Shown: positions 6,192-45,003 of the stretch, one piece after another
Layout: each line of letters begins with the position of its first letter
Position numbering within the stretch: position 1 is the first letter of the stretch
Source of the DNA: an uncultured bacterium
Lineage (GTDB): Bacteria; Actinomycetota; Humimicrobiia; Humimicrobiales; Humimicrobiaceae
Assembly: GCA_965549355.1 (NCBI GenBank)
Contig: CBEVGD010000001.1
Span: forward strand, 1-52,726
Direction of reading: 5' to 3'
Length of the DNA stretch: 52,726 nt
Position numbers and translations under genes: made by a program
Notes under the pieces: generated by a model
What the model was told of the DNA's origin: nothing
Databases searched by the model: none
What the model saw: only the letters and a program-made list of their open reading frames with translations

Positions 6192-6301
6192 TCTGTGAAT
6201 ATCCGGTGGTGAAAAATTTGACTTTATAAATCTTTTTGCTACATTATTCTTACCTTGCAACAGTAAATAACTTTAAGAAATTACCGGAATGGAGGAATAT
6301 A

Positions 6302-8895: not shown

Positions 8896-8907
8896 TGCCA
8901 TATAATA

Positions 8908-8928
8908 AGGATTTATGTATAAAATCCT
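8908..8928. terminator. Possible bidirectional hairpin between convergent xylB and plsY-like genes
   Basis: AGGATTT-atgtata-AAATCCT, a 7-bp stem. AT-rich flanks, only a weak U tract. Confidence 0.25.
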
Positions 8929-8948
8929 CCGGGACAATAGAGCTATTC

Positions 8949-9623: not shown

Positions 9624-9747
9624 ATTATGTTCCCTGTTATTATTTGATATTAATAAAAGATTATATCAAAATATCCAATATGTGTTTATGATAATATATA
9701 GCAGTTAGAGCCGTATCTTAATAATACTACTGAAGAAAGGTAAAGAC

Positions 9748-22913: not shown

Positions 22914-23067
22914 CACAACTCCTTTCAAGCCTATATTTATATTGCAATATGGGCAAAAATCATATTATAAAGCACTATGTCAGGAGACGGTTAGATACTA
23001 TAATAATAGATTTTAGGAATAATTTAAATTAAAAACATGCTGTAAATGGCTAAAAACAACAAAACTA

Positions 23068-29246: not shown

Positions 29247-31025
29247 TCATTTCTGCAGCTGATACTGATATTTATAGAGCTTATGGTATATGCCTTTTGC
29301 CTTAAGAAGCTCTTTATGGCTGCCTTTCTCTACGATCTCGCCATGAGAGAGCACTATTATTTTATCGACATTTTTTATTGTGGATAATCTATGGGCTATT
29401 ACTATTGTCGTCCTGTCCTCCATTATTTTTGAAAGAGCATCCTGTATAAGGGCCTCTATCTCCGAATCTATGCTGGAGGTCGCCTCATCAAGGACAAGCA
29501 ATACCTCAGGGTTGAATACCAGCGCCCTTGCAAAGGCGATAAGCTGCCTCTGGCCCACGGACAGAACCTGGCCCCTTTCCCTTACCTCGAACTCATACTG
29601 GTTGGGAAGTTTTTTGATGAATTTATGGGCATTGACGTATTTTGAAGCTTCTATGACTTTATCCAGGCTTATATCCTTATTGCCCAGCCTTATATTATCA
29701 AGGACCGTACCGGAGAATAGAAATACATCCTGCATCACAATGCCTATATGGCGCCTCAGGTCCTGAAGGTCGAATTTTTTTATATTGATATTATCCAGGA
29801 GTATCCTGCCTTTTTGTATTTCATAGAATCTGTTTATAAGGTTTATTATAGAAGTCTTTCCCGAGCCTGTGGCCCCGACAAAAGCAATGCTCTGGCCGGC
29901 ATGAAGGTCAAAGGATATATCTTTAAGGACATGGTCATCTTTATTATATGCAAACCAGACTCTGTCAAACCTTATATCGCCCTTGATTTTTTTCAGATGG
30001 ACCGGATCAACAGGAGAAGTGATGGCAGGTTTAAGATCAAGCAGATTAAAGATCCTCTCGGAAGCGGCAACCGCTTCCTGAAATATGCCGAATTTTTCGC
30101 TTAAATCACTTAGCGGGCGAAAGAACTTTTCAACATATTGTATGAAGGCCACAAGCGTACCGAGGGTAAGGACACTTCTTATCACCTGTCCTCCTCCATA
30201 CCATACCACAAGTGCTACTGCCATTGTGCTTATGAGGAAGACTATGGGTAAGAATATGGCATGATACAGAATGGTCCTGAGGTATACATTGAGGTACTGG
30301 CTGTTAAGGTCCTCAAATTCCATATTGTTTCCCTTCTCGCGGCTAAATAGCTTTGTGGTGACCACTCCTGATATGGCCTCCTGGAGGAAGGTATTAATAT
30401 TGGATATCTTTGTCCGTAGTATCCTGAAGGTGACCCGTACTTTTAAACGGAAAATAAAAGTTGCTACTGCAAGAAATATAAGGACAGAGAATGCGATAAG
30501 TGAGAGTCTCCAATTCAGAGCAAGCATGATGCCCATTATGCCGAGTATCATGAACAGATCTCCAAAAAGGGTTACTATGCCGGAAGAAAGCATCTCATTT
30601 AAGCTCTGTACATCTGTAGTGACTCTGGTCATTATCCTTCCCACTGGGTTTTTATCAAAATATGACATGGGAAATTTCTGTATATGTGAGAATATTTCCA
30701 TTCTCATATCATACATTACCTTCTGCCCTATATATTCAGTATAATAGCCCTGGAAATACCTTATTATAAATTCAAATAATATGGCCAGTCCATAGAGGGC
30801 CACTATATACACAAGCCCGTCAAGATTTCCGGGAGCAATATAATTATCAATGGCCAGCTTTATAAGATAGGGTCCTGCTACCTGCAGCCCCGCAGTCAGG
30901 AGCAGGAGGAAGATAGTCAGGGCAAGCAGATGCCTGTAGGGCTTGATAAATCTTAATAGCCTGGAAGCGGTCCTTGCATCTACCGGTCTTTCTGACAGTT
31001 CTTTTTCATAAAATCCTTCTGGCAA
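29247..31025 (-). CDS. ABC exporter half transporter (consensus-site subunit of a heterodimer)
   Basis: 592 aa. 6 TM helices, Walker A GATGSGKTS, signature LSVGQRQ, Walker B LLVLDEATSSID and H-loop IAHRLST. Confidence 0.9.
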   Translation of the reverse strand: MPEGFYEKELSERPVDARTASRLLRFIKPYRHLLALTIFLLLLTAGLQVAGPYLIKLAIDNYIAPGNLDGLVYIVALYGLAILFEFIIRYFQGYYTEYIGQKVMYDMRMEIFSHIQKFPMSYFDKNPVGRIMTRVTTDVQSLNEMLSSGIVTLFGDLFMILGIMGIMLALNWRLSLIAFSVLIFLAVATFIFRLKVRVTFRILRTKISNINTFLQEAISGVVTTKLFSREKGNNMEFEDLNSQYLNVYLRTILYHAIFLPIVFLISTMAVALVVWYGGGQVIRSVLTLGTLVAFIQYVEKFFRPLSDLSEKFGIFQEAVAASERIFNLLDLKPAITSPVDPVHLKKIKGDIRFDRVWFAYNKDDHVLKDISFDLHAGQSIAFVGATGSGKTSIINLINRFYEIQKGRILLDNINIKKFDLQDLRRHIGIVMQDVFLFSGTVLDNIRLGNKDISLDKVIEASKYVNAHKFIKKLPNQYEFEVRERGQVLSVGQRQLIAFARALVFNPEVLLVLDEATSSIDSEIEALIQDALSKIMEDRTTIVIAHRLSTIKNVDKIIVLSHGEIVEKGSHKELLKAKGIYHKLYKYQYQLQK

Positions 31026-31040
31026 TATAGCTCCTTAATT

Positions 31041-32845
31041 CTATGATTCTTCTTCAAGCTCCTCAGATAATTGCTGTCTGTGGTATAAGCTATTATATAT
31101 ACTGCACTTTTTCAGCAGTTCTCCATGGCAGCCCATTGAATCAATTTTCCCTTTATCAAGCACTATAATAAGGTCCGAATCTTTTATAGTGGATATCCTG
31201 TGAGATATGATAATAGTTGTGATATCCCTGGTTTCGGCTTTAAGGTCTGTAAGTATAAGCTCCTCTGTATTTGTGTCTACATTTGAGAATGAATCATCCA
31301 GTATCAGTATCTGCGGTTCTGCAAGAACCGCCCTTGCGATGGCAAGCCGCTGCTTCTGGCCGCCTGAGAGAGTCACGCCCCTTTCGCCGACAGGGGTAGC
31401 ATACTTTTCAGGAAAGCCTGATATATCCTCATGAAGGTGGGAGATAGTAGAAGCTCCTATGACTTTTTCATCGATCTCTTCTTTGCTCAGGCCTCCGAGA
31501 CTGTCTTCCGCTCCGAATAATATATTTTCCTTTATTGTCTTTGAAAACAAAAAAGGTATCTGGGTAACATAACCTATACTGCCTCTCAAGTGTTCCAGCG
31601 GATATTTTCTAATATCTATCCCATCAATATATATGGTGCCCTTTTGCGGGTCATCAAGCCTCGGAATAAGATTTGCCAGTGTTGACTTGCCTGATCCGGT
31701 GAAACCGACTATCCCGACCTGCATGCCTGCTTTGATATCAAAACTTATATTCTCAAGCATCGGGCCATCATCCGGCGAGGAAGGAATATCAACAAAATCC
31801 AGAAAATTTTCCTTGATAAGTTTTTTTGCATTGTTTCCGAGCTCATACCTGAAAGAGACATTTTTAAACCTGATATCTCCCCTGACGGGACCCGTGGCAG
31901 CACCTTTTGCGGGGCTCGTTATGCAGGCTTTATATTAAATATATTATTTATTCTTTTTATAGAGACCGATCCCCTCTGAATCAGGTTTATCACCTGCCCA
32001 AGAGCAAGAAGGGGCCAGGTTATGGAACCAACATATGCCGAGAACTGTACGAGTTGCCCCAGGGTCAGCGTACCGGCTACCACCTGTCTGCCACCTATCA
32101 GAAGTACCACCAGTATTCCTATGCCCCCAATAAATAGCATAGCGGGCCAGAATACGCTCCGGACCTTTGCAAGCGAGAGGTTTCTCTTTATATATTCCTG
32201 ATTGAGCTCTGAAAAGATATTCCTTTCATTTTTTTCCTGTGTAAAGGATTTTATGACCTTGATCCCTGCTATGCTTTCATGGGTCCTGGCAAAAAGCGCC
32301 GCATACTGTTCCTGGGACTTTTTAAATCTTGTATAGAGCATGGCACTTAATTTGGCCACTACAAATGGAAGTATCGGGATAGCTATCATCGAGTAAAGGG
32401 ATAGCTTTACATTTATAAGAAACATTATTAGAAAAGTGGTTGTAAACACAAAGATAGTATTAAAAAGATGCATGAGGCCGGGACCCAGAAAGTGCCTCAC
32501 AGCTTCCAGGTCATTTGTCATAATAGCCATTATGCTGCCTGTCTTAGTATTTATAAAAAAAGAAGGGTCAAGCTTTTGAAGATGGGCAAAGAAGTCTGTC
32601 CTTATGCTGTATTCGATCTTTCTCGAGATACCTATAAATATCTTTCTCATATAAAACCTGAATACTCCCTGAAGGGCGGCTATTCCTACAAGAAGTCCGG
32701 CATATTTTAAGAGATCTGCGGTATCGGGAAAGTTTTTAATACTGTCAATAGCCTGCTTTAATATCCAGGGAATAAGAAGTGCCAGAATGTCTGTAAGAAG
32801 TATGTATGCCACACTTCCACCCAAAGGGAGCCTGTGCCTTCTCAT
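31041..32845 (-). pseudogene. ABC exporter half transporter (degenerate-site subunit) split by a 1-nt frameshift
   Basis: The TMD ORF (31919-32845) ends ...INNIFNIKPA-TAA. The NBD frame is open from about 31935 and reads ...ITSPAKGAATGPVRGDIRFKNVSFRY...MLENISF. The paralogue has the contiguous sequence LLDLKPAITSPVDP...GDIRF. The NBD has Walker A GFTGSGKST, signature LSGGQKQ and Walker B ILILDDSFSNVD (D in place of the catalytic E). Confidence 0.7.
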
Positions 32846-33154: not shown

Positions 33155-33454
33155 CTATCCGTATTTTTTTTGATGCAATTCACCGGCCCTGCGTATCCAC
33201 TCATCACGAACGATGCGGTCTTTAAAAGAACCGAGTTTTGCTGACAGGCTTGCGATGTCAGATGCCGAAAATTCGGATATTTGTTTAAATGTTGTTATAT
33301 TATTCTCGTGCAGCATTTTTTCGAGTACCGCGCCGACACCAAATATTTCTTTCAGATTATCAGGTCCAGCTGGCGCAGCTTTTGGTTTGACCGCTACGGC
33401 CGGTGCGGAAGCGGCCAATAAGCACAAGATAATTTGTCCAATAAGATAACCCAT
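33155..33454 (-). CDS. Small helix-hairpin-helix-type protein with signal or anchor peptide
   Basis: 99 aa. A hydrophobic N-terminus, an Ala/Pro linker, then DNLKEIFGVGAVLEKMLHENNITTFKQISEFS....FKDRIVRDEWIRRA, an HhH module like those appended to NuoE or L21-type proteins. Its start overlaps the upstream stop (TAATG). Confidence 0.5.
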   Translation of the reverse strand: MGYLIGQIILCLLAASAPAVAVKPKAAPAGPDNLKEIFGVGAVLEKMLHENNITTFKQISEFSASDIASLSAKLGSFKDRIVRDEWIRRAGELHQKKYG

Positions 33455-34149
33455 TATTCTACCTCCGTAATTTTAAATTCAACTCTTCGATTATTTTGAC
33501 ATCCTTCAGCAGTACTATTATCGGCGATCGGCTCACTACTGCCAAACCCTTTGGCGGATAAACGATCGGCGGCAATACTGCGATTAACTAATTGCGACAA
33601 AACTGCTTCAGCGCGTTCCTGACTTAGATCTATATTATGTATTTCGGATCCCTGATTGTCAGTATGACCGCCAATAGTAATTTGAACTTCAGGATATTCT
33701 CCCAATAATTCAGCCAGATGATCGATAATCGGTAAACTCGTCTGTTCGATAGTTGCTGTATTAGTCTGGAATTTGATATTATTTGCACCAATGAAATCAT
33801 CCAATTTATTCTGTAAGACGGTTGCCTCTTCAGCCTGAGATTCCGGTGCCGTCACTTCTAATAAATTGTGGACAACTCTCACACCCCGCTCACTTTCAAT
33901 AGCGTGTTCGATTTTCATTTTTATATCTTCTGAAGGCACTATACCTTCTATCGTTGCATCACGTCCGCTAAAACTTAATAATTTGTCTTGAATTTCAAAG
34001 CCGGCAACTGCTTTCTGTGAGCGCGATAAAATATCATTAGCTAAACCCTTGCCCCCATATCCCAAGTCCAATTTTTCACTTTCCTTGTTTTTTATTAGAG
34101 GATTAATTAATTTTCTTATAAATACTGCAAATGGAAAAAGTAAGAACAT
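33454..34149 (-). CDS. BON-domain plus OmpA_C-like (peptidoglycan-binding) protein
   Basis: 231 aa. A BON-like segment (ATIEGIVPSEDIKMKIEHAIESERGVRVVHNLLEV) is followed by OmpA-like I.F..N.A.I.......L..L...L...P...I.I.GHTDN.GS...N..LS..RA..V...L........RL...G.G...P.A.N.T..G...NRRVEF. Confidence 0.8.
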   Translation of the reverse strand: MFLLFPFAVFIRKLINPLIKNKESEKLDLGYGGKGLANDILSRSQKAVAGFEIQDKLLSFSGRDATIEGIVPSEDIKMKIEHAIESERGVRVVHNLLEVTAPESQAEEATVLQNKLDDFIGANNIKFQTNTATIEQTSLPIIDHLAELLGEYPEVQITIGGHTDNQGSEIHNIDLSQERAEAVLSQLVNRSIAADRLSAKGFGSSEPIADNSTAEGCQNNRRVEFKITEVE

Positions 34150-34250: not shown

Positions 34251-36716
34251 TTAAATAAACTCGATCCTGATATCCGGAGACGGGTCATTTACTATCTCAA
34301 TGGAAATATTCTCAAGTTCTGGAGGCAGGCAAACCCTGGTTATGCCCGGCTGTTTTTCTGATTGAATAGAGATCCTTTGCGAATCATCAACGATTTCATA
34401 TTCTGAGCGGCCGTTTTCATCAGGGTATATCATCAGTGTCAGATCTTCCCGCTTAATCTCTTCTGTATTCCGGACCTCTTTTCCAAGTGGAAGGATCGAG
34501 CCGCCGCGGATATAAAAAGGTATCCTCCGGATATCACAGGTCTCCCTGATCCATGTTGGGCCGGAGTATTTCTTTCCTGTCTGAAAATCATACCAGATTC
34601 CTGCAGGTATATAGATATCTCTTGTCCCGCTCCTCGAAAGGATGGGAGCCACCAGGATATTCCGTCCACACATAAATTGATCCTCAATATTATAGACTGT
34701 CCTGTCATTTTGAAAATCCAATACCAGGGCCCGGAGAAGAGGAAGGCCTGCCGGCGCAGCAATATGTGATTCGGAATAGATGTATGGAATCAGTCTGTAG
34801 CGCAGATTCAGTAATCGGCGTACTATATCCTGAGTCTCTTTATGAAAGTTCCATGGCTCCCTGTATCGGGGAGGAGCGCCGTGAAACCTGATATGTGATT
34901 GAAAAATGGAAATCTGGGTCCATCTAATGTAAAGAGCATCGTCAGGGATACCTACAAAACCGCCGGTATCCTGGCTCCAGAAAGTGAACCCGGACAGTCC
35001 AAGGCTCAAGCCCCCGCGAAGAGAACATAAAAGGTTTTCATAATTGGCCGAGTTATCGCCTGACCAGTGAACAGGGTACCGCTGAGAGCCCGCATAGGCG
35101 CTTCTGGCCCATATGACACCCTCTCCGGTAGTTTCTTTTGTTATATCATAGACAGCTTTGTTATAGAGCAGGGGATATAGATTGTGCATCTGTCTTCCGT
35201 CATATTCTTTAAATCTCATTGCAGGCTCGATCCCCTCGCCGAAATCAGCTTTAATGGCAGATGCGCCAAGATCCAGCAGGCGCTTAATTAATTTCTGGTA
35301 CCAGAGAACAGCATCAGGCTTCGAAAAATCAATAGGATGGGCAGGAAACCTGAGAATAAAATTGAATGGTGCATTATTCCTTGCAAGAACTTTTTTCTTT
35401 TTGGCTTCCTTATAGAGCTTTGTCTCATCCATTACATAAGGAGCCTGCCAGAGAGATAATCTGAAGCCCATCTCCCTCGCCTTCCTGAACATGCCCTCAG
35501 GATCGGGAAACCTTTCTCTGTCAAATTCCCAGTCGCACTGCCAGTCCTTTTCAAACCATCCCGTATCTATATGAATAACATCGCACGGGATTTTCATTTT
35601 GCGCAGTTTTCCAGCTGTTTCAAGGACCTCTTTCTGGGAAAAATATGAAATCCTGGACATCCATGTCCCAAAGGACCATTTCGGAGGGACGGATGCTTTG
35701 CCTGTAAGCTCTGTGTAGTTAAATAGAATTTTCTTAAAAGTGGGTCCGTAGAAAAAGAAATAATCCATAAGATCGCCTTCTACGGCTACCTGAGTTTTAC
35801 AATATTCACGGCTCCCTACCCAGAATGTAATGGGCCTGCTCTCGTTAAAATAAACGCCGTATCCCCGGGTGCTCATAAAAAAGGGGATATTTTTATAAGT
35901 CCTTCCCGATGTATTTCCCATCCCCTCAAAATGCCAGAAACCAAAAGTCTTGCCTGTCTTGTTCAGGGATCCGAATCCTTCTCCTAATCCGTAGACCCCT
36001 TCCCCCGGATAAAGCACAAAGGACTCAACACTGTAGGTCTCAGGGCTCTTTTTGTCTTTTGCAAAACCGAGTGGCAGGGAATCCATTGTTGTAGGGAATT
36101 CGTTTTTAGTTTTCCCTCCTGTTTCCGTTATGAGATTTCTTGCCTTATCATATACCTTTATACAAAAATTCTTTTTGTAAATCTCCAGAGTAATCTTTTC
36201 AGTGGTTAATGTATAATGGTCATCCAACTCATTGAATTCAACTTTCAACTGGCCATCCCGGATATCATTGGCAATCATGGGAGTTCTATTTTCCGGCATT
36301 ATCTTTTCCCCGGTCAAGCGCAGACGGTAAGAATCAGCTTTTAAAATATCAATCTGCAGCAGGAGATTGTCGAAAGGTGTTTTAGGGGTGATCTTATAAT
36401 TATGTGCGAATGCAAAGTCAAGGTCCCTAATTTTATATACATCAAATCCCCTGGCATTAAAGATGAAAGAGTTTGATTTTTGTTCCCTGAACTCAACCTG
36501 CAGGACGCAGGAGGCTTTTTTCCTATTTATTTTTCGCAGTATGGTAAACAGTGAGAAAAAAGCGCTGCCGTCTACATCAAGAGGGTGATCAGTGAGTCCA
36601 AAATAGACATTGGGATTGTTTTCCCCCAATCTTCTTTTTAAAGAAGGATAGCGTATCCGTCCCTTGATAAGATACCACAGAGGTTTGAGATTATTGAGGA
36701 CCGTTTTTTTATCCAT
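34251..36716 (-). CDS. Glycoside hydrolase family 31 (YicI/alpha-xylosidase-like alpha-glycosidase)
   Basis: 821 aa. Nucleophile region IKADFGE, HWSGDNSANYENLLCSLRGGLSLGLSGFTFWSQDTGGF (acid/base region), and a DTGWF motif. Confidence 0.85.
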   Translation of the reverse strand: MDKKTVLNNLKPLWYLIKGRIRYPSLKRRLGENNPNVYFGLTDHPLDVDGSAFFSLFTILRKINRKKASCVLQVEFREQKSNSFIFNARGFDVYKIRDLDFAFAHNYKITPKTPFDNLLLQIDILKADSYRLRLTGEKIMPENRTPMIANDIRDGQLKVEFNELDDHYTLTTEKITLEIYKKNFCIKVYDKARNLITETGGKTKNEFPTTMDSLPLGFAKDKKSPETYSVESFVLYPGEGVYGLGEGFGSLNKTGKTFGFWHFEGMGNTSGRTYKNIPFFMSTRGYGVYFNESRPITFWVGSREYCKTQVAVEGDLMDYFFFYGPTFKKILFNYTELTGKASVPPKWSFGTWMSRISYFSQKEVLETAGKLRKMKIPCDVIHIDTGWFEKDWQCDWEFDRERFPDPEGMFRKAREMGFRLSLWQAPYVMDETKLYKEAKKKKVLARNNAPFNFILRFPAHPIDFSKPDAVLWYQKLIKRLLDLGASAIKADFGEGIEPAMRFKEYDGRQMHNLYPLLYNKAVYDITKETTGEGVIWARSAYAGSQRYPVHWSGDNSANYENLLCSLRGGLSLGLSGFTFWSQDTGGFVGIPDDALYIRWTQISIFQSHIRFHGAPPRYREPWNFHKETQDIVRRLLNLRYRLIPYIYSESHIAAPAGLPLLRALVLDFQNDRTVYNIEDQFMCGRNILVAPILSRSGTRDIYIPAGIWYDFQTGKKYSGPTWIRETCDIRRIPFYIRGGSILPLGKEVRNTEEIKREDLTLMIYPDENGRSEYEIVDDSQRISIQSEKQPGITRVCLPPELENISIEIVNDPSPDIRIEFI

Positions 36717-36717
36717 A

Positions 36718-37563
36718 TTAAAAATCCTCCACTTTCTTTATCTCCGCCTCCGGGTAGATCCAGCCTGCCTTCGGAGGCATTGAATTGTAGACCCGGTTTA
36801 TATTGACAGTGCCCAGTTTTATCCCCCTATGCCTGTTAAATCCTGAAAATTTACCTCTTACAAGAACATCTTCCATGTCGAGAGTAAGTCCAAATATTGC
36901 TATGTCGCTATCCTCTTTCAGGCTGATTAATTCGTCCCTGTATGCTCCCGGGTTAAATACTATTCTTGTACTGTCGGAAGCCTGGCATTGAAGCAAAGGT
37001 ATTATCATAGGATAACTATCTGTTCCTATGAAAGATAGAAATTTCAATGAATTTAGTCTGTTAAAAAGAGATTCTGTCCAGAAATTCATGACCCTTTTGT
37101 CATGTTTTAATGATGCTCCCTTTTTAGATATCTTTGTTAATATAGAAGAAAGTATAATCTTTGAGAGGGGAAGCGGACTTTTTACTGTTGTCTCAACAAG
37201 ATCCATGTAGTGGATTGTATGTATTCCCATATATGAATTATATCTCCACATGGGGAGTTTGTTAAATTTCTCGTAATCTTCCCCTTCTTTGAGGCAGCAC
37301 TGCCATCTGGCCTTTCCCCTCCAGAGCTGTCTGTCCATTGTCATAATTAAAAATCCTGTCTTCGGATTGCTCTTTACATTTATTTTGCTCTGCCCCTGTG
37401 AAAATTGTCCCCACATCAATATGCCGTCACCCTTTGCCAGAATTGTGCTGATAAGAGTTATGTGGGGCATCCCCTCATTGCTAACAGTCGCAATCAGCCC
37501 AATTTTATTTTCGGGTTTGAATGCTTCAATATCTTCTTTGCTGAATTTTCTCTTGATATCCAT
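36718..37563 (-). CDS. Two-domain PNPOx-like (FMN-binding split-barrel) family protein, function unknown
   Basis: ATG 37563 lies 4 nt after the activase stop, and its own stop is 1 nt before the GH31 ATG. The N-terminal half (IGLIATVSNEGMPHITLIST...TGFLIMT...WRGKARW) resembles the pyridoxamine-5'-phosphate-oxidase fold. Weak assignment. Confidence 0.4.
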   Translation of the reverse strand: MDIKRKFSKEDIEAFKPENKIGLIATVSNEGMPHITLISTILAKGDGILMWGQFSQGQSKINVKSNPKTGFLIMTMDRQLWRGKARWQCCLKEGEDYEKFNKLPMWRYNSYMGIHTIHYMDLVETTVKSPLPLSKIILSSILTKISKKGASLKHDKRVMNFWTESLFNRLNSLKFLSFIGTDSYPMIIPLLQCQASDSTRIVFNPGAYRDELISLKEDSDIAIFGLTLDMEDVLVRGKFSGFNRHRGIKLGTVNINRVYNSMPPKAGWIYPEAEIKKVEDF

Positions 37564-37567
37564 CTTG

Positions 37568-38617
37568 TTATTCCCGGTTATTTGCAATTGCCGTAATTTT
37601 ACAATAATCAACCATCCCGGGGCCGTTGCTGCCAGGGGGCGGTTTTCTTTGCTCAGTTTTAACGGGACCGGTCCAGATAATTTTTTGCGGCCTGTTGGAT
37701 GATTTCATTGCTGCAGCAAGGAGTTTATTCATTGTTTCACCCCCGAGAAGGTCATATTTTTTAAAATTCCATCTAAGGCCAAGGCGCTCATACTTATTGT
37801 TACAAAGATTATTGAAGGAACATAGCTCCCATCTGTCAAACTTGATAGAGTTATCAGATAGATATTTCCCAATGCCGGAGATGTTCTCGCTTGTGGCTGT
37901 TGCATCCGGAATAATGGGTGTTCTGATCCATAGAATCTCCGGATAGATGTGATCTTTAATGTATTTATTAATAAATTTAAGGTTATTTAGAATAAGCTCA
38001 TTCGTATTCCCGGTGAATTTTTTATGTTTTTCCGGATCTATCTCCTTAAGGTCGAAAAGAATGATATCAGTAAAGGGAAGTATTTTTTTTAATGAATCTT
38101 CTGAATACATTCCGCATGTATCAAAGGCTGTATTAACACCTTCAGCTTTTAATCTTTTTAATAATGATGATACAAAATCTGCCTGCATGCCGGGTTCTCC
38201 GCCGGATATTGTTATGCCTCCGGAAGATTTTTCAAAGTAAGCCCTATCTTTAAGTATCTCCTTTATGAGTTTGTCCTCTGTCCATTTCGAACCAATAATT
38301 TCAATAGCGCCGGACGGACATTCATCAGAGCAGGCTCCGCAGACATTACATTTTTCATGGTCCGCAAATATCTCTTTATTTTTAAAAAGAAGTGCATTTT
38401 CCGGACAAATATCAACACAAATCCCGCATTGAATACAATTTGTATTAATCCATTGGATCCGCGGTTTAAATGATATGCTCTCAGGATTATGGCACCAGGT
38501 GCATTTCAGGCTGCATCCTTTCATAAATACTGTAGTTCTAATGCCCGGCCCATCTTCAGTCGACATTCTTTGAATTTCAAGAACCATACCTTTCGGTTTT
38601 TCTAAACTGGAAGTCAT
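37568..38617 (-). CDS. Glycyl-radical-enzyme activating enzyme (radical SAM, with two auxiliary ferredoxin-type clusters)
   Basis: CSLKCTWCHNPE (CX3CX2C) near the N-terminus, then CIQCGICVDICP and CNVCGACSDECP motifs. ISGGEP glycine-rich SAM motif. A Pro/Gly-rich C-terminal extension of about 40 aa. Confidence 0.9.
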   Translation of the reverse strand: MTSSLEKPKGMVLEIQRMSTEDGPGIRTTVFMKGCSLKCTWCHNPESISFKPRIQWINTNCIQCGICVDICPENALLFKNKEIFADHEKCNVCGACSDECPSGAIEIIGSKWTEDKLIKEILKDRAYFEKSSGGITISGGEPGMQADFVSSLLKRLKAEGVNTAFDTCGMYSEDSLKKILPFTDIILFDLKEIDPEKHKKFTGNTNELILNNLKFINKYIKDHIYPEILWIRTPIIPDATATSENISGIGKYLSDNSIKFDRWELCSFNNLCNNKYERLGLRWNFKKYDLLGGETMNKLLAAAMKSSNRPQKIIWTGPVKTEQRKPPPGSNGPGMVDYCKITAIANNRE

Positions 38618-38632
38618 TTTCTGTTTTTCCCT

Positions 38633-41149
38633 TTAAAACCTTTCATGATTTGAACGGGCAATTATCTCATCCTGCAGCTCTCTTCCGATAGTTGTGAAAT
38701 ATGCATTGTATCCGGTTACCCTGACCAGGAGATGCCTGTAATTCTGAGGATGCTTTTGCGCATCCTTTAACATCTCGGAGTCGAGTATATTTATCTGAAG
38801 CGCTGTCCCTCCATTTTCTGCATATCCTCTAAGAAAAGCTTTAAATTTATCTTTGTGTTCATTATCTTTCATTAATGATGGGCTGAATGTTATTGTATGG
38901 CTTGCTCCATTAGGCAGTGAGTTATTATATTCCATCCAGTCACCCTTTTTAGATTTGCCTCCCATAACTTTTCCAACCGAGTTGCTGTTTGATGTCGGAC
39001 CGTTTATATCAGCTCCGTTAACAGGGCATATTGCATTTGACAGGAATTGTCCCTTCCCCCTTCCATCAGCGCTTGCCGGGAGTATAAATCCTTCGCCAAC
39101 CCAGTAGTTCCAGCTGAGCATGCCCGGCCTGAACTGTCTGCCGGTTGACTTTGTTTTGTATTTCCACGTTTCTTCCGTCCAGAGATCCATGACAAATTTA
39201 CCCATTCCGTCTGCTTCATCATTGTCCCTGCCGTATTTTGGGACCCTGTTTTTTGCTCTTGCCTGAAGCACCTCATAACCCTCCCAATTTGCCTTCAGAG
39301 CCTTTATAAGCTCTTTCATTGTGCAGAACTTTTCATCAAATACCAGATATTTTATTGAAAGAAGGGAATCTACTGTGCTTGCATATGTTACAGCTTCGAT
39401 TGTTGAAAAACTAATCTCCGCTCCCCCCTCTGTTATGTCGAGACCCTTCTCGGCACAGCCTTTAACAAGACAAGAAAGGTATGGTGTGGGGCTAAATTCA
39501 GCTCTAATAGATTCTGACACCTCATAGAGATCAGTAATCCTTTTTACGATATATTTCGTCTGAGTTATATATGCTTTTTTAAAAGCATTCCATGTTTTGA
39601 AGTTTTCAGGATTGCCTGTTCTGGGTCCATCCTGTCTTATTTTCTCTTTTTTACCTGTAATCGGATCAATAAAAACATTCATGTCCCTGCCGCCGGTTAG
39701 GGCCAGTTCCACTGCTTTCAAAAGATTGAGATTATTATCCACTGTCCCGGACCTGTCATTGCCGCACATTGTGTTTTCAAGACACCCTACAGAAGCATAG
39801 TTATGAACATTTTCCATATTGATCAGATTTGATAGTTTCCCATTTTTTGATTCCTTCATCATCCCTGCCATAGATCTTTCATCAAAGTTTAGCAAAAACG
39901 GCGCTCCCTGGCTTGAAGATATCATGCTTATGATTACATCGAAGAGTTTGTCCGGTGTATTTCTATGGAGTCTTATATTAGGTTTCGGTTCGAGAATAGG
40001 CGACATCTCATCAATAACTTCAAGAATGGCATAGGTTAGCTCATTAGTAAGATCCTGACCGTTCTTACCAAGGCCGGATAGGGTTATCAGCTGTCCATAA
40101 CCCGCAGTTATCCCCTGATTTCCTCCGACTCTAATAAGTGCGTCATATGCTGTATTTGCATGCAGCCAAAAGCTTTTCAGGATCTCTTTTCCAAATTTCC
40201 TGTCCATGCCATTGTCAATTGATTTTTTCCAGAATGGATAGAGATATTGATCAAATCTTCCAAAAGATATGCCGGGTCCAGGATAGTTTTCATCGCTCAT
40301 CACAAGCATATGGCTTATCCAAAGCGACTGGACCGCTTCCCAGAAAGTAGCTGGAGGCTCCCATGGAACTCTTCCAAGATTGGCTGCCATCTGAAGCAAT
40401 TCTTTTTTCCGAACATTATCTTTTTCTGATTTAGCTATACTTTTGCATAATAGAGAATATTTTTCTGCAAGTTCTTTCGGCATCTTTGCAGCCGCCATCA
40501 TTGCTCTGAGCCGCGCACCTTTCTTTCCTTTTTTTTCAGTATCGGGCAACTTGCTGTAAAATGATCCCAGATCCTGAAAAACACCTTTCCACCCTTTATC
40601 AAGAATTTTATCATATCCAGGAATAAGATGACCCGATGTTGCCCCGGAATTACCATAGCCGTGGTCATGGAACCATTTCATCCGGGCCCTTGATCCTGTT
40701 TTCCCATAAATAAGGCTATCTCTCTTCCCGGCTTCACTTTTGTTCCAGCAGTTTGATGTCATTAAATTAAATCTGCTCCCGGCAAGAAGATCTCCGGGAA
40801 GGATCTCCTGCGGCAGGTAGTTTGTGACAACCTCTTTTAAAAACCATGCTTTTCTTTCAGGAAGACTCCAGCTCCAAAACTCTTTGTGTATCTCAACTTT
40901 TTTAGATGCCTGCTTAATAGAGGATCTGAATGTTTGTAAAAATGGATATGTTTCCGGAACAATGTAGTAGGTGAGTTCATCATACTGAATATCCCAGTCT
41001 GTTCCTGTCGTCCAGGAGGTATATTCATTATTCCAGGCTCTTTTAGTTCCGGAAAAGTAATAATCACGCAACCATTTTATTCGAGCACTTAACCCGGCGG
41101 GTTCTTTGATCTGAAATTCAGGAGATTGCATTACCACTTCATACCTCAC
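38633..41149 (-). CDS. Glycyl radical enzyme, PFL2/glycerol-dehydratase-like clade, substrate unknown
   Basis: 838 aa. The C-terminal glycyl radical motif is LLVRVTGYNAYFTTIGRELQDEIIARSNH. The thiyl loop is VGCLEN (Cys with Glu at +2, as in 1,2-eliminating GREs). The start may be GTG 41149 or ATG 41131. Confidence 0.9.
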   Translation of the reverse strand: MRYEVVMQSPEFQIKEPAGLSARIKWLRDYYFSGTKRAWNNEYTSWTTGTDWDIQYDELTYYIVPETYPFLQTFRSSIKQASKKVEIHKEFWSWSLPERKAWFLKEVVTNYLPQEILPGDLLAGSRFNLMTSNCWNKSEAGKRDSLIYGKTGSRARMKWFHDHGYGNSGATSGHLIPGYDKILDKGWKGVFQDLGSFYSKLPDTEKKGKKGARLRAMMAAAKMPKELAEKYSLLCKSIAKSEKDNVRKKELLQMAANLGRVPWEPPATFWEAVQSLWISHMLVMSDENYPGPGISFGRFDQYLYPFWKKSIDNGMDRKFGKEILKSFWLHANTAYDALIRVGGNQGITAGYGQLITLSGLGKNGQDLTNELTYAILEVIDEMSPILEPKPNIRLHRNTPDKLFDVIISMISSSQGAPFLLNFDERSMAGMMKESKNGKLSNLINMENVHNYASVGCLENTMCGNDRSGTVDNNLNLLKAVELALTGGRDMNVFIDPITGKKEKIRQDGPRTGNPENFKTWNAFKKAYITQTKYIVKRITDLYEVSESIRAEFSPTPYLSCLVKGCAEKGLDITEGGAEISFSTIEAVTYASTVDSLLSIKYLVFDEKFCTMKELIKALKANWEGYEVLQARAKNRVPKYGRDNDEADGMGKFVMDLWTEETWKYKTKSTGRQFRPGMLSWNYWVGEGFILPASADGRGKGQFLSNAICPVNGADINGPTSNSNSVGKVMGGKSKKGDWMEYNNSLPNGASHTITFSPSLMKDNEHKDKFKAFLRGYAENGGTALQINILDSEMLKDAQKHPQNYRHLLVRVTGYNAYFTTIGRELQDEIIARSNHERF

Positions 41150-41290
41150 TGTTTAAATCGGATTCTAAACGACCAATACCATGTTCCGGCAGTGCAGCCA
41201 TAATCTTTCTGGAATTTCTAATATTTTTACTTTTTATTGACTGGTAAATATCTCCATGGAAGGAAAAACAGTTTCACAGATACCTGCTTT

Positions 41291-41319
41291 AGTCTATTTG
41301 GTTCCTATATATTAGTCAA
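41291..41319 (-). promoter_or_regulatory. Candidate promoter for the GRE operon
   Basis: On the minus strand: TTGACT, 17 nt, TAGACT. This would leave a ~135-150-nt leader. Pattern match only. Confidence 0.25.
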
Positions 41320-41383
41320 GGCGAACTCGTTTAGATTTATTTATGATGCAGCAGGGCCGGGGCGTCGGTGTTTGGTAAAAACA

Positions 41384-41404
41384 TTTTTCACTTAAAGTGA
41401 AAAA
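41384..41404. promoter_or_regulatory. Perfect 10-1-10 palindrome in the divergent GRE/hspR intergenic region (candidate operator)
   Basis: TTTTTCACTT-a-AAGTGAAAAA, about 40 bp upstream of the hspR -35 element. Confidence 0.4.
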
Positions 41405-41442
41405 TTCATTTTACATCTGCATTAAAATCCTTTATAATAGCG

Positions 41443-41471
41443 TTGACATTTGAAATGGTTTTATATAAAAT
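41443..41471 (+). promoter_or_regulatory. Candidate promoter of the hspR-dnaK operon with an internal 5-1-5 palindrome
   Basis: TTGACA (41443-41448), 17 nt, TAAAAT (41466-41471). CATTT-g-AAATG (41447-41457) lies at the -35/spacer junction, a MerR-like operator position. Confidence 0.4.
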
Positions 41472-41501
41472 TTTACCATTGATAATAGGTGGTGAACATT
41501 A

Positions 41502-41819
41502 TTGTTTGATAAAAAAGATAAGAGTTATCCGATCGAACTTGTTGCGGACTTCTTAGGGGTGAACAGCAGGACGCTTTACTATTATGAGAAGTTCAGCCTG
41601 GTGGTCCCTTTGAGAAGGGGGCGGAAAAGATATTACTCAAGACAGGATATAAGATGGCTGGAATATGTAAGGGAGCTTATGTATGACCAGGGAATGAATC
41701 TGAGATCCATAATAGTTTTGATCAGAAGAAGAGATAATGTGATACTGGATAAATGCCCGGATGAGATCGTGGATTGTTTTAAGAATTACCTTGTAAAATT
41801 GAAAGATCTGCAGGGTTAG
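41502..41819 (+). CDS. hspR: MerR-family heat-shock regulator (HspR-like)
   Basis: 105 aa. TTG start 7 nt after AGGTGGTG. The HTH is IELVADFLGVNSRTLYYYEKFSLVVP.R....RYYSRQDI. It sits immediately upstream of dnaK. Confidence 0.7.
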   Translation: MFDKKDKSYPIELVADFLGVNSRTLYYYEKFSLVVPLRRGRKRYYSRQDIRWLEYVRELMYDQGMNLRSIIVLIRRRDNVILDKCPDEIVDCFKNYLVKLKDLQG

Positions 41820-41880: not shown

Positions 41881-43830
41881 ATGGGAAAAGCAGTAGGAAT
41901 AGACCTTGGAACAACAAATTCAGCGATTGCTGTTATGGAAGGCGGAAAGCCGACCGTAATTACAAATAGCGAGGGAGGAAGAACGACTCCTTCCGTAGTC
42001 AGTCTTACAAAAAAAGGGGAAAGGCTGGTGGGGCAGCTTGCCAAAAGGCAGGCGGCGCTCAATCCGGAGAATACAGTATATTCTATAAAGAGATTCATCG
42101 GAAGAAAATATAGCGAAGTCGAAAGCGAACGAAAAATAGTATCATACGAGGTCCTTAAAGGGAGAAATGACCTTGCTGAAGTAAAGATAGGTGGAAAGAT
42201 CCAGACTCCCGAAGAGATATCAGCTATGATACTGCAGAAATTAAAAAAAGATGCTGAAAGTTATCTTGGCACAGATGTCACAGATGCTGTTATAACAGTA
42301 CCTGCATATTTTAATGATGCCCAGAGGCAGGCTACAAAGAATGCCGGAAAGATAGCAGGGCTCAATGTGCTCAGGATAATAAATGAACCGACAGCTGCAT
42401 CTCTGGCTTATGGCCTTGATAAGAAAAGTGATGAGAAGATCCTTGTATTTGACCTTGGCGGAGGGACCTTTGATGTATCAGTGCTTGAAGTAGGAGAGGG
42501 AGTTTTCGAGGTAAAATCAAGCCACGGGGATATGCACCTTGGAGGAGACGATTATGATAACAGGATAATGAATCATCTCGCAGATGAGTTCAAAAAAGAG
42601 CAGGGAATAGATCTGCGTCAGGACAAACAGGCTCTCCAGAGACTCATTGAAGCATCTGAAAAGGCAAAGGTCGAACTTTCATCAGTGACCGAGACCAATA
42701 TTAGCCTTCCATTTATAACAGCGGATACGAATGGCCCGAAGCATCTTGAAATGAAGATCTCAAGAGCTAAATTTGAGCAGCTTACAGCAGATCTTACCGA
42801 CAGATGCAAGGTCCCGCTGGAAAAGGCACTAAAAGACTCGGGCCTTAAGGCTGAAGAAATAGACGAAGTAATACTGGTCGGAGGATCTACAAGGATGCCT
42901 GTGATCCAGGAACTTGTAAAAAGCTTTATTGGAAAGGACCCCCATAAGGGAGTAAATCCTGATGAAGTCGTAGCAGTAGGTGCGGCAATACAATCCGGCG
43001 TCTTAAAGGGCGATGTAAAGGATGTTGTACTTCTGGATGTAACACCATTGTCTCTTGGTATTGAGACTCTGGGCAGTGTGATGACAAGGCTCATTGAGAG
43101 AAATACTACAATACCTACAAAGAAGAGCGAGATATTTACGACTGCAGCAGACAGCCAGACCAGTGTTGACATACATGCACTTCAGGGTGAGAGGGATATG
43201 GCCAGCAATAATAAGACGATCGGAAGATTCAGGCTGGATGGAATACCTCCCGCACCAAGAGGCATACCGCAGATAGAAGTCACTTTTGATATTGATGCCA
43301 ATGGTATTGTAAATATCTCAGCAAAGGATACAGCGACAGGCAAGGAACAGAAGATAACTATCACGGCCACCTCGCATCTTACTGATGATGAAATAGAGAG
43401 GATGGTAAACGAAGCCAAGGACCATGCTGATGAGGATAAGAAGCAGAGAGAATCTATTGATGCCAAAAATACAGCTGACGGACTGGTTTATTCCACAGAG
43501 AAACTGCTCAAAGATATGGGAGAAAAGGTTCCGGCAGATATGAAGACAAAAATAGAGGATCAGGTCAAAGTGCTTAAAAAAGCACTCGAAACAGATGATG
43601 CGGAACAGATCAAGAAAGAGACAGAAGCGCTTCAGAATCTTCAGAACGAACTATCGCAGAAGCTCTATGCCCAGTCCGGAGCTGAAGCCGGAGGACAACC
43701 CGGAGGGGACCAGGGCACAGGACCGGGAGCAGGCGCAGAAGGACAGCAGCAGCCCGGAGACCAGCAGCAGGGTGGCAATGGCGATGACGATGTGATAGAT
43801 GCCGAATTCGAAGCTAAAGATGATAAATAA
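41881..43830 (+). CDS. dnaK: Chaperone DnaK (Hsp70)
   Basis: 649 aa. [17 protein letters not shown] and [11 protein letters not shown] motifs, with a Gly/Gln-rich acidic C-terminal tail. Confidence 0.97.
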
Positions 43831-43859
43831 TGATTTAAGAGAAATAAAAAAATGAAGAA

Positions 43860-43900
43860 ATGTACTGCCCATAGCTTTGTATAAGCTGTGGGCAGTACAT
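43860..43900 (+). terminator. Strong hairpin between dnaK and the J-protein gene (attenuator or partial terminator)
   Basis: ATGTACTGCCCA (43860-43871) pairs with TGGGCAGTACAT (43889-43900), with further AGCT/AGCT pairing inside. Followed by CTTT only. Confidence 0.4.
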
Positions 43901-43927
43901 CTTTAAGGACAGATTGGTGAAAAATAA

Positions 43928-44896
43928 ATGGTAGATTATAGGGATTATTACCAGATTCTGGGAGTAGATAAAAAAGCTACTGCTGATGAAATAAAAAAAG
44001 CATACAGAAAGCTTGCCAGAAAGTATCACCCGGATGCAAATGCCAATAACCCAAAAGCCGAAGAGAAATTCAAGGAGATAGGAGAAGCCTATGAGGTCCT
44101 AAAAGATCCTCAGAAGAGACAGAGATATGATCAGCTGGGGTCTAACTGGAAACAGTATGCCAATGCGGGCCGGCCGGGAGGGGGCCAGTCCTATAGCAGT
44201 TATGATTTCGGAGGCAGGGGCTTTAATTTTGAAAATATGGGCGGAGGCTTTTCGGACTTTTTTGAGATGTTTTTCGGATCTGGGTCGGGCCAGCGCTCTT
44301 CAAATTCTAATTTTGGACAGAATTTTGGAAGAGGCGGGGCAAGAGCGCAGAAAGGACAGGATCTGCGGTCCTCTCTGGAGATATCCTTAAGAGAGGCCCA
44401 TAGCGGCACCAGAAGGTCCATAAAGCTTCAGAAAGAGGGAAGGGCCAGAACAGTAGATGTGAAGATCCCTGCAGGAATAAAGAATGGAGGGAAGATACGC
44501 CTTTCCGGCGAGGGCAGCCCGGGTCCGGGCGGAGGTCCCGGAGGAGATCTTTACCTGACTATAAATATAGCGAGCCATGGTCTTTTTGAAAGAAAAGGCG
44601 ATGATCTGTATATAGAGGTGCCGGTGACTATTAAGGAGGCCTATTTGGGAGGAAAAATAGATGTCCCCACCTTTAATGGCAGAGTGGATGTAAAGCTTCC
44701 CGCAAAAACCCAGTCCGGGAGGACATTAAGGCTCAAGGGAAAGGGTATGCCCGGCTTAAAGGGAAAGGGTTCTGGAGATCTGTATGTGAAGACAAAGATA
44801 GTATTTCCGGAAAAACTGGATCGAAAAAAACGAAAACAATTTGAAGAATTTCTAAAGGATTATGATGAGAATCCAAGGGAAAATATAATAGCATAA
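43928..44896 (+). CDS. J-domain co-chaperone of the CbpA/class II type (no zinc-finger domain)
   Basis: 322 aa. J domain DYYQILGV...[11 protein letters not shown], a G/F-rich linker and C-terminal beta-sandwich domains. No CxxCxGxG repeats. Confidence 0.85.
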
Positions 44897-45003
44897 TATT
44901 GTTTTAGAAAAACTCTAAAAATGGACCGGTCTGCATAATATAGCGGGCCGGTAAAAAGAAAATAATAATCCGGTTTAAATAAAAAATAAGGGGATCGATA
45001 TAA

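Follow-up and report, generated by a model that had tools for sequence, protein, structure and literature searches.

Some of the most demanding reactions of anaerobic metabolism fall to glycyl radical enzymes (GREs), and each newly assigned clade has brought a new pathway with it, as for choline, hydroxyproline, sulfonates and anhydro-sugars. The described systems closest to the locus reported here are the eliminases and isomerases HypD, B12-independent glycerol dehydratase (GD), CutC, HpsG/HpfG, IslA, PflD/YbiW and HplG, which combine a PFL-like fold and a C-terminal glycyl radical domain with a single catalytic Cys, a Glu at +2 and a His at the position of GD H164, and which have a three-cluster activase encoded alongside; the sulfonate enzymes among them (HpsG, HpfG and IslA) also carry an Arg/Gln/Arg sulfonate-binding triad. 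A CXE motif is common to all characterised GRE eliminases and isomerases (PMC13450708). In the hydroalkylase and decarboxylase classes, represented by the benzylsuccinate and alkylsuccinate synthases and 4-hydroxyphenylacetate decarboxylase, an extra non-activase protein, a small Fe-S or rubredoxin-like accessory subunit, is always encoded with the catalytic subunit and co-evolves with it. Here, we describe a widespread orphan GRE clade that shares the fold, the radical domain, the Cys, Glu and His residues and the three-cluster activase of the eliminases and isomerases and is defined by an obligatory split-barrel partner. Our search of the literature on glycyl radical enzymes found no account of this clade or of its partner, although one fumarate-adding GRE operon in the literature includes an unexplained PNPOx-like protein, LssP.

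The locus lies in a stretch of 52,726 nucleotides, which is referred to here as the window. A preliminary description had pointed to four packed minus-strand genes with gaps of 15, 4 and 1 nt, encoding an orphan GRE, its activase, a PNPOx-like protein and a GH31 glycosidase, and the ORF coordinates agree with this layout. The features are as follows.

34251..36716, minus strand: GH31 glycosidase, 821 aa, with nucleophile D491 and acid/base D554 (Pfam GH31 domains)
36718..37563 (from ATG), minus strand: tandem split-barrel partner (PNPOx-like, HupZ/COG3576-like), 281 aa (PF01243, AlphaFold2, Foldseek)
37568..38617, minus strand: GRE-activating radical SAM enzyme (AE), above the TIGR02494 cutoff, carrying C35/C39/C42 plus a pair of 4-Cys motifs of ferredoxin-like type
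38633..41149, minus strand: GRE (Pfam PFL-like and Gly_radical), with key residues C456 and E458 (GCLENT), H174 and G813 (RVTGYNAYF)
41142..41273, minus strand: remnant of a GntR/FadR-type regulator, C-terminal 44 aa (tblastn with the regulator of related locus L083)
41150..41501, no strand: spacer separating the GRE cluster from the divergently oriented hspR-like/dnaK genes, presumed to be the promoter region of the cluster

The individual gene calls also held up, with one adjustment. In the GRE, which matches PF02901 (PFL-like) at 401 bits and PF01228 (Gly_radical) at 79 bits, the RVTGYNAYF and VGCLEN motifs start at residues 810 and 454. An ORF of 838 aa does run from GTG 41149 as described, but the true start is probably GTG 41137 or ATG 41131, 4-6 codons downstream, giving 832-834 aa, since an identical database protein has 834 aa and homologues have 832-834 aa. 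The AE, encoded 15 nt downstream of the GRE, is a three-cluster radical-SAM activase (TIGR02494, 312.9 against a cutoff of 174.35) with a C35-x3-C39-x2-C42 motif and two CxxCxxCxxxCP motifs (C61-C71, C90-C100). The two-domain split-barrel nature of the 281-aa partner is borne out by PF01243 and an AlphaFold2 model, and the GH31 protein has three GH31 Pfam domains, with D491 and D554 lying in the expected KADFGE and WSGDN motifs. On the minus strand, a promoter scan of 41150..41501 returned weak consensus matches only (e.g. 41319-41291, 9 of 12 positions). By Pfam and NCBIfam, the neighbors of the cluster in the window are an OmpA-like gene, ABC exporter genes and dnaK/dnaJ/clpB; no microcompartment shell or aldehyde dehydrogenase genes were met among them, and no sulfonate, sulfite or sugar-processing genes were found near the cluster. 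A xylulokinase (7366-8895) and a CE7 esterase (6236-7267), earlier taken as nearby, are in fact more than 25 kb off and unlinked to the GRE cluster. We rejected a tie to the window's own FGGY kinase, which is XylB-type (559 bits) and more than 25 kb distant.

Comparison with 80 related genome loci, 62 of which had at least 2.3 kb of sequence after the GRE, shows that the conserved unit is the GRE, its AE and the split-barrel partner. Each of these 62 loci carries the partner gene; in 60 the AE follows the GRE and the order is GRE-AE-partner, while in the other two (L017 and L025) the GRE and partner occur without an AE, and in most loci the AE and partner genes are adjacent or overlapping. The proposed association of the GRE with its activase and a PNPOx-like protein is thus very strongly conserved, and recurrence of synteny, which had been suggested as a check, extends to these three genes but not to GH31, found in none of the 80 loci. 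When 950 ORFs from the 80 loci were clustered, only one further conserved neighbor emerged, a GntR + FCD/FadR_C regulator of organic-acid-sensing type whose gene immediately precedes that of the GRE in 39 of 80 loci. Its remnant in the window was recovered by a tblastn search that used the L083 regulator as query (38.6% identity, 44 aa, E = 1.2e-6). Neighbors present in a few loci include Amt/GlnK, a sulfatase, 2-hydroxyacyl-CoA dehydratase, enoyl-CoA hydratase, acyl-CoA synthetase and an acyltransferase. Unlike the known eliminases and isomerases, the GRE is not followed by a conserved set of genes for aldehyde, imine or sulfite processing and has no microcompartment, and instead has its obligatory tandem split-barrel partner; no recurrent shell-like cluster was found in the 80 loci, where small ORFs were covered non-exhaustively.

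Relatives of this GRE are encoded in about 260 species-level genomes, among them Bacteroidales, Spirochaetota, Syntrophaceae, Desulfobacterales and Myxococcota as well as Chloroflexi, and are conserved across phyla at 67-85% identity. Members of the Asgard archaea (Thor-, Jord- and Njordarchaeota) belong to a sister clade at ~40% identity, and sister loci L093, L094 and L095 keep the GRE-AE-PNPOx-like arrangement. Many anaerobic bacteria thus share this oxygen-sensitive enzyme and its two companions with Asgard archaea. In another sister, at 48% identity, Phe replaces the catalytic Cys and the locus has no AE, yet the overlapping partner gene is kept; at L084 the partner adjoins the GRE and the locus lacks an AE.

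PF01243 matches the N-terminal half of the partner only (32.3 against a cutoff of 28.1) and is found in eight of nine deep-clade partners, whereas an NCBIfam search with the partner gave no match. Its AlphaFold2 model (pLDDT 87) has two beta-barrel halves with helices joining them. Foldseek and profile searches match it to HupZ, the FMN-binding protein Swol_0183 and MSMEG_3380, and at the sequence level its matches to solved structures are weak and single-domain. The split beta-barrel fold is shared with HupZ/COG3576 (profile E = 8e-10 to HupZ), Swol_0183, MSMEG_3380 and the Desulfovibrio vulgaris FMN-binding protein, with target-normalised Foldseek TM-scores of 0.65-0.77 to proteins of this group over one domain, and an (S/T)(K/R)xN motif is conserved as in HupZ and these small proteins. 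The proteins of this group, however, are single-domain homodimers of 120-150 aa, whereas the partner consists of two diverged copies in one chain, although single-domain versions also occur in sister clades. To our knowledge, no HupZ, COG3576 or small FMN-binding split-barrel protein has been linked to a GRE. The fold and the (S/T)(K/R)xN motif suggest that the partner probably binds flavin; this is an indirect reading, as the closest solved relative, HupZ, is not an established flavoprotein.

Partner divergence tracks the GRE and not the activase: the partial Mantel correlation between partner and GRE given AE is 0.73, a value reached in 0 of 2000 permutations, compared with -0.17 between partner and AE given GRE, with the caveat that the AE evolves faster and more noisily, which can distort mirror-tree correlations. 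An activase requires electrons from an outside reductant, and the partner could be a dedicated low-potential electron donor that reduces the [4Fe-4S] clusters of the AE in the manner of a flavodoxin, with no catalytic role. The gene order with AE then partner, separated by 4-nt gaps or overlapping in the window, L094 and L095, and the adjacency of the two in most loci fit a partner serving the activase equally well, and small FMN-binding split-barrels such as that of D. vulgaris are among its structural matches. We nevertheless consider this rather unlikely, as the partner stays beside the GRE in loci without an AE (L017, L025 and L084) and in the sister clade that has lost the catalytic Cys, its divergence follows the GRE, and its many invariant polar and aromatic residues exceed what would be expected of a simple electron carrier. 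In being always encoded with the catalytic subunit and co-varying with it, the partner recalls the accessory subunits of the succinate synthases and 4-hydroxyphenylacetate decarboxylase; it is unlike them in being a 281-aa PNPOx-like split-barrel pseudo-dimer encoded with an eliminase-like GRE.

The designation of the GRE as an orphan stood up to comparison with the characterised clades by NCBIfam cutoffs, PDB searches and GD residues. The protein is under every NCBIfam equivalog cutoff, its scores falling far below, at roughly one third, and its identity is ~30%, both with its best matches among solved structures and with all of the eliminases and isomerases named above. Its top PDB match is HypD (290 bits), but NF043068 gives 372 bits where the cutoff is 1100, and P292 aligns with the residue following Trp in the HypD WDAFT motif, which we take to be Asp278. 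Scores are similarly low for CutC (TIGR04394, 321 bits against 1050), for HpsG/HpfG/IslA (NF048011 and NF048009, 352 and 372 bits, each with a cutoff of 1000; IslA in the PDB, 234 bits) and for the PflD/YbiW anhydro-sugar phosphate isomerases (NF007437, 282 bits against 1109; YbiW 227 bits and PflD 240-244 bits in the PDB). The family has signatures of its own, namely DENYPGPG(V/I)SFGR, GNQGITAGYGQL, GCLENTMxGNDRSGTVD, LSWNYW and RVTGYNAYF. The Glu at Cys+2 that had been singled out as the general base of the 1,2-eliminating enzymes is indeed present, C456-L-E458 aligning with GD C433/E435, and this motif is invariant throughout the family and the canonical sister clades; GCLENT, H174 (equivalent to GD H164) and RVTGYNAYF are likewise family-invariant. 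The other Cys of the CLENTMC loop was rejected as a second catalytic residue, as that position varies across the family.

The GRE might be another B12-independent glycerol/diol dehydratase, its substrate being glycerol, 1,2-propanediol or ethylene glycol and its reactive aldehyde product being handled by the partner. H174, Y351, C456 and E458 match GD H164, Y339, C433 and E435. There is also some support from context: GlpK is encoded upstream in L030, L040, L050, L057 and L070, all from one Syntrophaceae group, sister locus L090 has GlpK and glycerol-3-phosphate oxidase-like genes, and at sister locus L088 a GRE-like gene is paired with an Fe-alcohol dehydrogenase. (The window's FGGY kinase is only 26% identical to the Syntrophaceae GlpK.) Several observations make this reading improbable. 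The glycerol-binding residues of GD are H164, H281, S282, Y339, E435, D447 and Y640, and P292, G293, V470 and L678 replace H281, S282, D447 and Y640; the TIGR01774 score is 408 against a cutoff of 678, and the PDB match to GD reaches only 278 bits. In addition, no conserved alcohol or aldehyde dehydrogenase or microcompartment genes were found with the family in the related loci, and the regulator conserved with it belongs to a type that senses organic acids.

The fourth gene of the cluster tells a different story, as the GH31 glycosidase is a lineage-specific passenger that lies outside the conserved module. The preliminary description had coupled it to the GRE in a single catabolic pathway, sulfoglycolysis-like or xyloside-linked, in which GH31 would free a sugar, polyol or aglycone for transformation by the GRE. 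Only 1 nt separates the GH31 gene from that of the partner, with no convincing terminator found between them, which suggests that GH31 is probably co-transcribed with the GRE cluster in the source genome and makes a local physiological link conceivable, and the same adjacency is seen in L081, the closest relative (85% GRE identity). Beyond L081 the association dissolves: GH31 is missing from L083, whose GRE is 80% identical, as well as from the 80 related loci, and in L081 itself the protein is reduced to 385 aa by in-frame deletions that remove residues 454-620 and with them both catalytic Asp, while the neighboring GRE, AE and partner are intact. With GH31 absent or decayed in relatives, the proposed coupling falls by the refuting condition that the preliminary description had itself set for synteny. 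The best PDB matches of the GH31 protein are 5f7c, named an alpha-glucosidase (498 bits), and YicI (421-430), with YihQ at 138, and the enzyme shares with YicI and BT_0339-type GH31 proteins the three domains and both catalytic residues. The YicI-like alpha-xylosidase call is insecure, however, as NF007940 scores 556.9 against a cutoff of 606 and T385/G386 occupy the positions of C307/F308, presumably the xyloside determinants of YicI. The sulfoquinovosidase idea was rejected: the R301/W304/Y508 triad, which we take to be the sulfonate-recognising residues of YihQ, is absent, the aligned positions being D391, C394 and a gap. Given also the lack of sulfonate, sulfite or sugar-processing genes nearby, we regard a joint GH31-GRE pathway as very improbable; close packing of genes in a single genome is no evidence for a pathway.

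Finally, that the GRE is a pyruvate formate-lyase (PFL) or an alkyl/benzylsuccinate synthase (XSS), as suggested by the source annotations of relatives ('formate C-acetyltransferase', 'pyruvate formate lyase family') and by some archaeal metabolic reconstructions for related proteins, Asgard GREs having been called Ass/Bss at 29-33% identity (PMC8163825), is scarcely credible given a TIGR01255 score of 79, where the cutoff is 994, one lone Cys followed by Glu at +2 in place of the PFL Cys-Cys pair, PDB scores for BSS and MASS (160-164 bits) that are the lowest of the PFL-like enzymes bar HPAD and PFL, and no small XSS subunit genes found in the related loci.

Overall, the explanation that we favor, and hold to be probable on balance, is a three-gene module with eliminase/isomerase chemistry in which the partner serves the GRE and to which GH31 has been appended. 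Gene content, motifs, synteny, the position outside the characterised clades and the co-variation of partner with GRE are observations; the class of reaction, the role of the partner and the type of substrate are inferred. Such a module would be self-contained, normally with a GntR/FadR-type regulator ahead. The AE, with S-adenosylmethionine, would generate the glycyl radical on G813, from which the radical would move to C456. By analogy with the Cys-x-Glu eliminases and isomerases, the C456 thiyl radical would abstract hydrogen from a carbon of a small substrate that carries a hydroxyl group or adjoins one, E458 would deprotonate that hydroxyl with H174 probably protonating the leaving group, and the neighboring carbon would lose its C-O (or C-N) bond, leaving a carbonyl product. 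The partner would be obligatory to the GRE itself and not a generic activase helper, whether it is an accessory subunit or a flavin-dependent enzyme acting on the same metabolite, and the GH31 gene would have been added downstream in a recent ancestor of the source organism. Our best guess for the substrate is a small hydroxylated, possibly anionic C3-C4 compound, based on the acid-sensing regulator type and scattered glycerol/C3 neighbors. A lactate-type MFS transporter is encoded downstream in the five Syntrophaceae loci with GlpK and in L027, and in L027 and L057 a 2-hydroxyacid dehydrogenase gene follows further on. Such context, drawn from few and partly related lineages, hints weakly at glycerol or C3 hydroxy-acid metabolism.

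In conclusion, this GRE clade is large and unusually conserved, and its members are currently labelled pyruvate formate-lyase or hydroxyproline dehydratase. The invariant non-activase partner offers a concrete handle for biochemistry, and its presence is a caution against taking these genes for PFL or hydrocarbon-activating enzymes when metabolism is reconstructed. More tentatively, and on the doubtful side, the clade may work only as a two-component enzyme in which a flavin-bearing split-barrel subunit bound to the GRE feeds or withdraws electrons in the course of the radical reaction or switches the glycyl/thiyl radical on and off. We know of no redox chemistry of that kind for GREs. If true, either version would define a new GRE class, the electron-feeding or electron-withdrawing one with redox chemistry of a new kind, and the substrate would be central enough to anaerobic necromass turnover to hold the enzyme at ~70% identity across phyla.

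All four genes of the preliminary description were recovered, packed on the minus strand with spacings of 15, 4 and 1 nt, as were the motifs quoted for the glycyl radical enzyme (GRE) and the glycosidase:

38633-41149, minus strand: GRE; Pfam PFL-like domain (401 bits) and glycyl radical domain (79 bits)
37568-38617, minus strand: radical-SAM activase (AE); TIGR02494, 313 bits against a cutoff of 174
36718-37563 (counted from the ATG), minus strand: PNPOx-like partner, a 281-aa tandem split-barrel protein; PF01243, N-terminal half only
34251-36716, minus strand: 821-aa GH31 glycosidase; all three GH31 domains found

The GRE start probably lies four to six codons further in, because an identical database protein has 834 aa. 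VGCLEN begins at GRE residue 454 and RVTGYNAYF at residue 810; in the CLENTMC loop, the position of the second Cys varies across the family. The AE sequence carries a CX3CX2C motif (C35/C39/C42) plus two ferredoxin-like Cys motifs, and in the GH31 protein D491 lies within KADFGE and D554 within WSGDN.

With NCBIfam equivalog models as the yardstick for GRE class, the window enzyme falls far under the cutoff in every one.

Scores of the window GRE against family models and solved structures (bits)
HypD model: 372, cutoff 1100
HpfG model: 372, cutoff 1000
HpsG model: 352, cutoff 1000
CutC model: 321, cutoff 1050
PflD model: 282, cutoff 1109
Indoleacetate decarboxylase model: 248, cutoff 1100
PFL model: 79, cutoff 994
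TIGR01774 subfamily model: 408, cutoff 678
HypD structure: 290, best PDB match
Archaeoglobus PFL2 structure: 282
Glycerol dehydratase (GD) structure: 278
BSS and MASS structures: 160-164

Against a library reduced to clusters of 50% identity, the GRE finds one full-length family representative (67%), then a few sisters (40-48%), below which lies the general GRE continuum at 31-36% identity, alignable only from about residue 170 on. No similar enzyme is among those covered by a 2026 superfamily review (PMC13450708), and a targeted literature search did not find a description of the clade. The scores below cutoff confirm the earlier view of an orphan GRE with an AE and a PNPOx-like protein, synteny of this triad strengthens it, and the enzyme stands outside the characterised clades.

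A scan with one genome per species yielded about 260 relatives, and the best 80 loci were fetched, all from metagenome-assembled genomes (MAGs) of Bacteroidales, Spirochaetota/Leptospirales, Syntrophaceae/Smithella, Desulfobacterales, Myxococcota and Bacteriovoracaceae; Chloroflexi are also represented among the protein matches. Scored by tblastn with the window proteins as queries, a PNPOx-like gene was present in all 62 loci having at least 2.3 kb beyond the GRE, so that the GRE-PNPOx pairing does recur in other genomes, and 60 of these 62 share the order GRE-AE-partner; the other two (L017 and L025) are GRE-partner, with the AE nowhere in either locus. Three loci (L033, L055 and L010; Deltaproteobacteria, Syntrophaceae) have two GRE copies only a few kb apart, accompanied in L010 by a second AE. 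Clustering of 950 ORFs from the 80 loci revealed a single additional recurrent gene, a regulator of about 245 aa with GntR, FCD and FadR_C domains and distant similarity to NanR, FadR, LldR, PdhR and GlcC, which in 39 loci immediately precedes the GRE. The window retains a remnant of its last 44 residues (41142-41273, minus strand; 38.6% identity, E = 1e-6, tblastn), the intact regulator having been lost from this lineage. Other neighbours differ from genome to genome across the 80 loci, as would be expected of a portable, self-sufficient module.

Beyond the remnant come a divergent hspR-like ORF (41502-41819, plus strand; a small ORF judged MerR/HspR-type by eye only) and a heat-shock cluster of dnaK, a dnaJ-like gene and clpB (41881-47607), divergent from the GRE cluster. 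Elsewhere in the window, an SmdA-like ABC exporter on the minus strand is apparently split into an ATPase ORF (31041-31760, 239 aa) and a membrane-domain ORF (31919-32845, 308 aa) with 158 nt between them, and may be a frameshift or pseudogene; an intact 592-aa paralogue (29247-31025) adjoins it. Two PlsY-type glycerol-3-phosphate acyltransferase paralogues are also encoded (8949-9623 and 23588-24235, both minus strand). The contig is labelled 'Actinomycetia bacterium' and has a G+C content of about 40%; genes for an OmpA-family protein (33454-34149) and for a lipid A biosynthesis acyltransferase (22056-22928) nevertheless lie on it, and the proteins nearest to the GRE and partner come from Spirochaetales MAGs. 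Its bin assignment looks doubtful.

Coupling of the GRE to the glycosidase, proposed earlier through either sulfoglycolysis or xyloside metabolism, found no support. Using the window GH31 as a tblastn query, we found the gene in none of the 80 related loci. The closest relative, a Spirochaetales MAG (L081, GRE 85% identical), has a GH31 gene after the partner (8625-9782), of only 385 aa; it keeps window-enzyme residues 26-261, 332-453 and 621-652 in a single frame, so both catalytic aspartates are gone, while its GRE, AE and partner are intact. A further locus (L083, GRE 80% identical) has no GH31 and a GntR regulator upstream. The adjacency, seen in L081 and the window and absent from L083 and the 80 loci, therefore arose in a recent common ancestor of the two, one of which can evidently do without the enzyme. 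By the preliminary description's own measure, recurrence in other genomes, GH31 counts as a fortuitous juxtaposition.

The GH31 protein itself has D491 and D554 aligned with the catalytic pair of YicI and YihQ. The sulfoquinovosidase recognition residues, which we take to be YihQ R301/W304/Y508, were not found, these positions being D391, C394 and a gap. It scores slightly below cutoff in the YicI alpha-xylosidase model (557 vs 606), and T385/G386 occupy the positions of C307/F308, presumably the YicI xyloside determinants; the xylulokinase and CE7 esterase described as nearby lie more than 25 kb off. Its closest solved relative is 5f7c (entry name alpha-glucosidase, 498 bits), with a DTGWF motif common to both, and it is an ordinary YicI/5f7c-type GH31.

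The partner is strongly conserved (69% mean column identity over 32 sequences), with many invariant polar and aromatic residues. Its AlphaFold2 model (pLDDT 87, pTM 0.87) comprises two beta-barrel halves with helices between, and Foldseek matched one half at a time to HupZ, the FMN-binding protein Swol_0183, MSMEG_3380, a Desulfovibrio FMN-binding protein and PhdC. A deep-clade partner profile likewise retrieved HupZ (E = 8e-10) and COG3576-type proteins; to our knowledge, HupZ is not an established flavoprotein. Bacterial and archaeal partners keep the motifs ATV..(E/D)G.P, (S/T)(K/R)xN and VY...PP.PG, the second of which we take to resemble the flavin phosphate-binding motif of PNPOx-like proteins. 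Together, the fold matches and this motif make flavin binding likely.

Sister clades, which we sampled through individual GRE-like proteins, carry similar genes. P0248 (41% identity) comes from a large clade with Njord-, Thor- and Jordarchaeales, Promethearchaeota, Dehalococcoidia and Abyssubacteria; in its own locus (L090), a PNPOx-like gene with a single domain immediately precedes the GRE, and the three loci sampled from the clade (L093, no taxon assigned; L094, Jordarchaeales; L095, Thorarchaeota; GREs P0399, P0457 and P0478) all show GRE-AE-PNPOx-like, with partners of 139, 263 and 274 aa, respectively, whose genes often overlap those of the AE. The motifs GCLENT, RVTGYNAYF, (E/A)(N/S)YPGPG and LSWN, common to P0245, P0248 and the window family, define a superclade. 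Some Asgard GREs are named alkyl/benzylsuccinate synthases in published reconstructions, on the strength of 29-33% identity (PMC8163825). In P0243 (48% identity; L084, 260-3669), Phe replaces the catalytic Cys (GFHETT) and the glycine motif is altered to RIFGQKCRF, so thiyl chemistry seems lost; there is nonetheless a 7-nt overlap between the GRE gene and a PNPOx-like gene 33% identical to the window partner, the partner thus staying with the GRE-fold protein despite this apparent loss. No AE was found in L084, where enoyl-CoA hydratase, SnoaL-like and branched-chain-type ABC transporter genes come after the PNPOx-like gene.

The partner therefore remains beside the GRE in three loci without an AE (L017, L025 and L084). 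Across 40 loci whose gene calls were clean, distances between partners correlate with those between GREs (r = 0.77) more than with those between AEs (0.39), the AE being faster-evolving and its distances noisier. With AE controlled for, the partial Mantel correlation of partner and GRE is 0.73, reached by 0 of 2000 permutations; with GRE controlled for, that of partner and AE is -0.17. AE-less loci, the Cys-less sister clade and these correlations are soft evidence that the partner serves the GRE rather than the AE. PNPOx-like partners may accompany GREs more widely, since a PNPOx-like protein, LssP, is likewise encoded, expressed and unexplained in the operon of an unrelated fumarate-adding GRE, limonenylsuccinate synthase (PMC12583861).

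Alignment places C456 and E458 among the residues retained in the window family. Of the GD residues compared, which we assume to be H164, H281, S282, Y339, D447 and Y640, H164 and Y339 are kept (as H174 and Y351), and H281, S282, D447 and Y640 become P292, G293, V470 and L678. This pattern points to an eliminase-like or isomerase-like enzyme, and the four replacements led us to reject a GD orthologue. In all characterised Cys-x-Glu GREs, the thiyl radical takes an H atom, Glu deprotonates a substrate hydroxyl and the ketyl radical so formed ejects an adjacent leaving group (PMC13450708). Neighbours offer sparse hints: GlpK upstream in five loci (L030, L040, L050, L057 and L070; 685 bits, cutoff 590), an L-lactate-type MFS transporter downstream in the same five and L027 (449 bits, cutoff 320), a D-2-hydroxyacid dehydrogenase past the transporter in L027 and L057, GlpK and glycerol-3-phosphate oxidase-like genes in L090, and an Fe-alcohol dehydrogenase paired with a GRE-like gene in L088. 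From these and the organic-acid-type regulator, our best guess at the substrate is a small C3-C4 molecule, hydroxylated and perhaps anionic.

It is conceivable, if on balance doubtful, that GRE and partner form a two-component enzyme combining radical and flavin chemistry, or a switch for the radical. In conclusion, the window GRE represents an uncharacterised clade that is widespread and strongly conserved, and whose hallmarks are an obligatory split-barrel partner and, usually, a GntR/FadR regulator.
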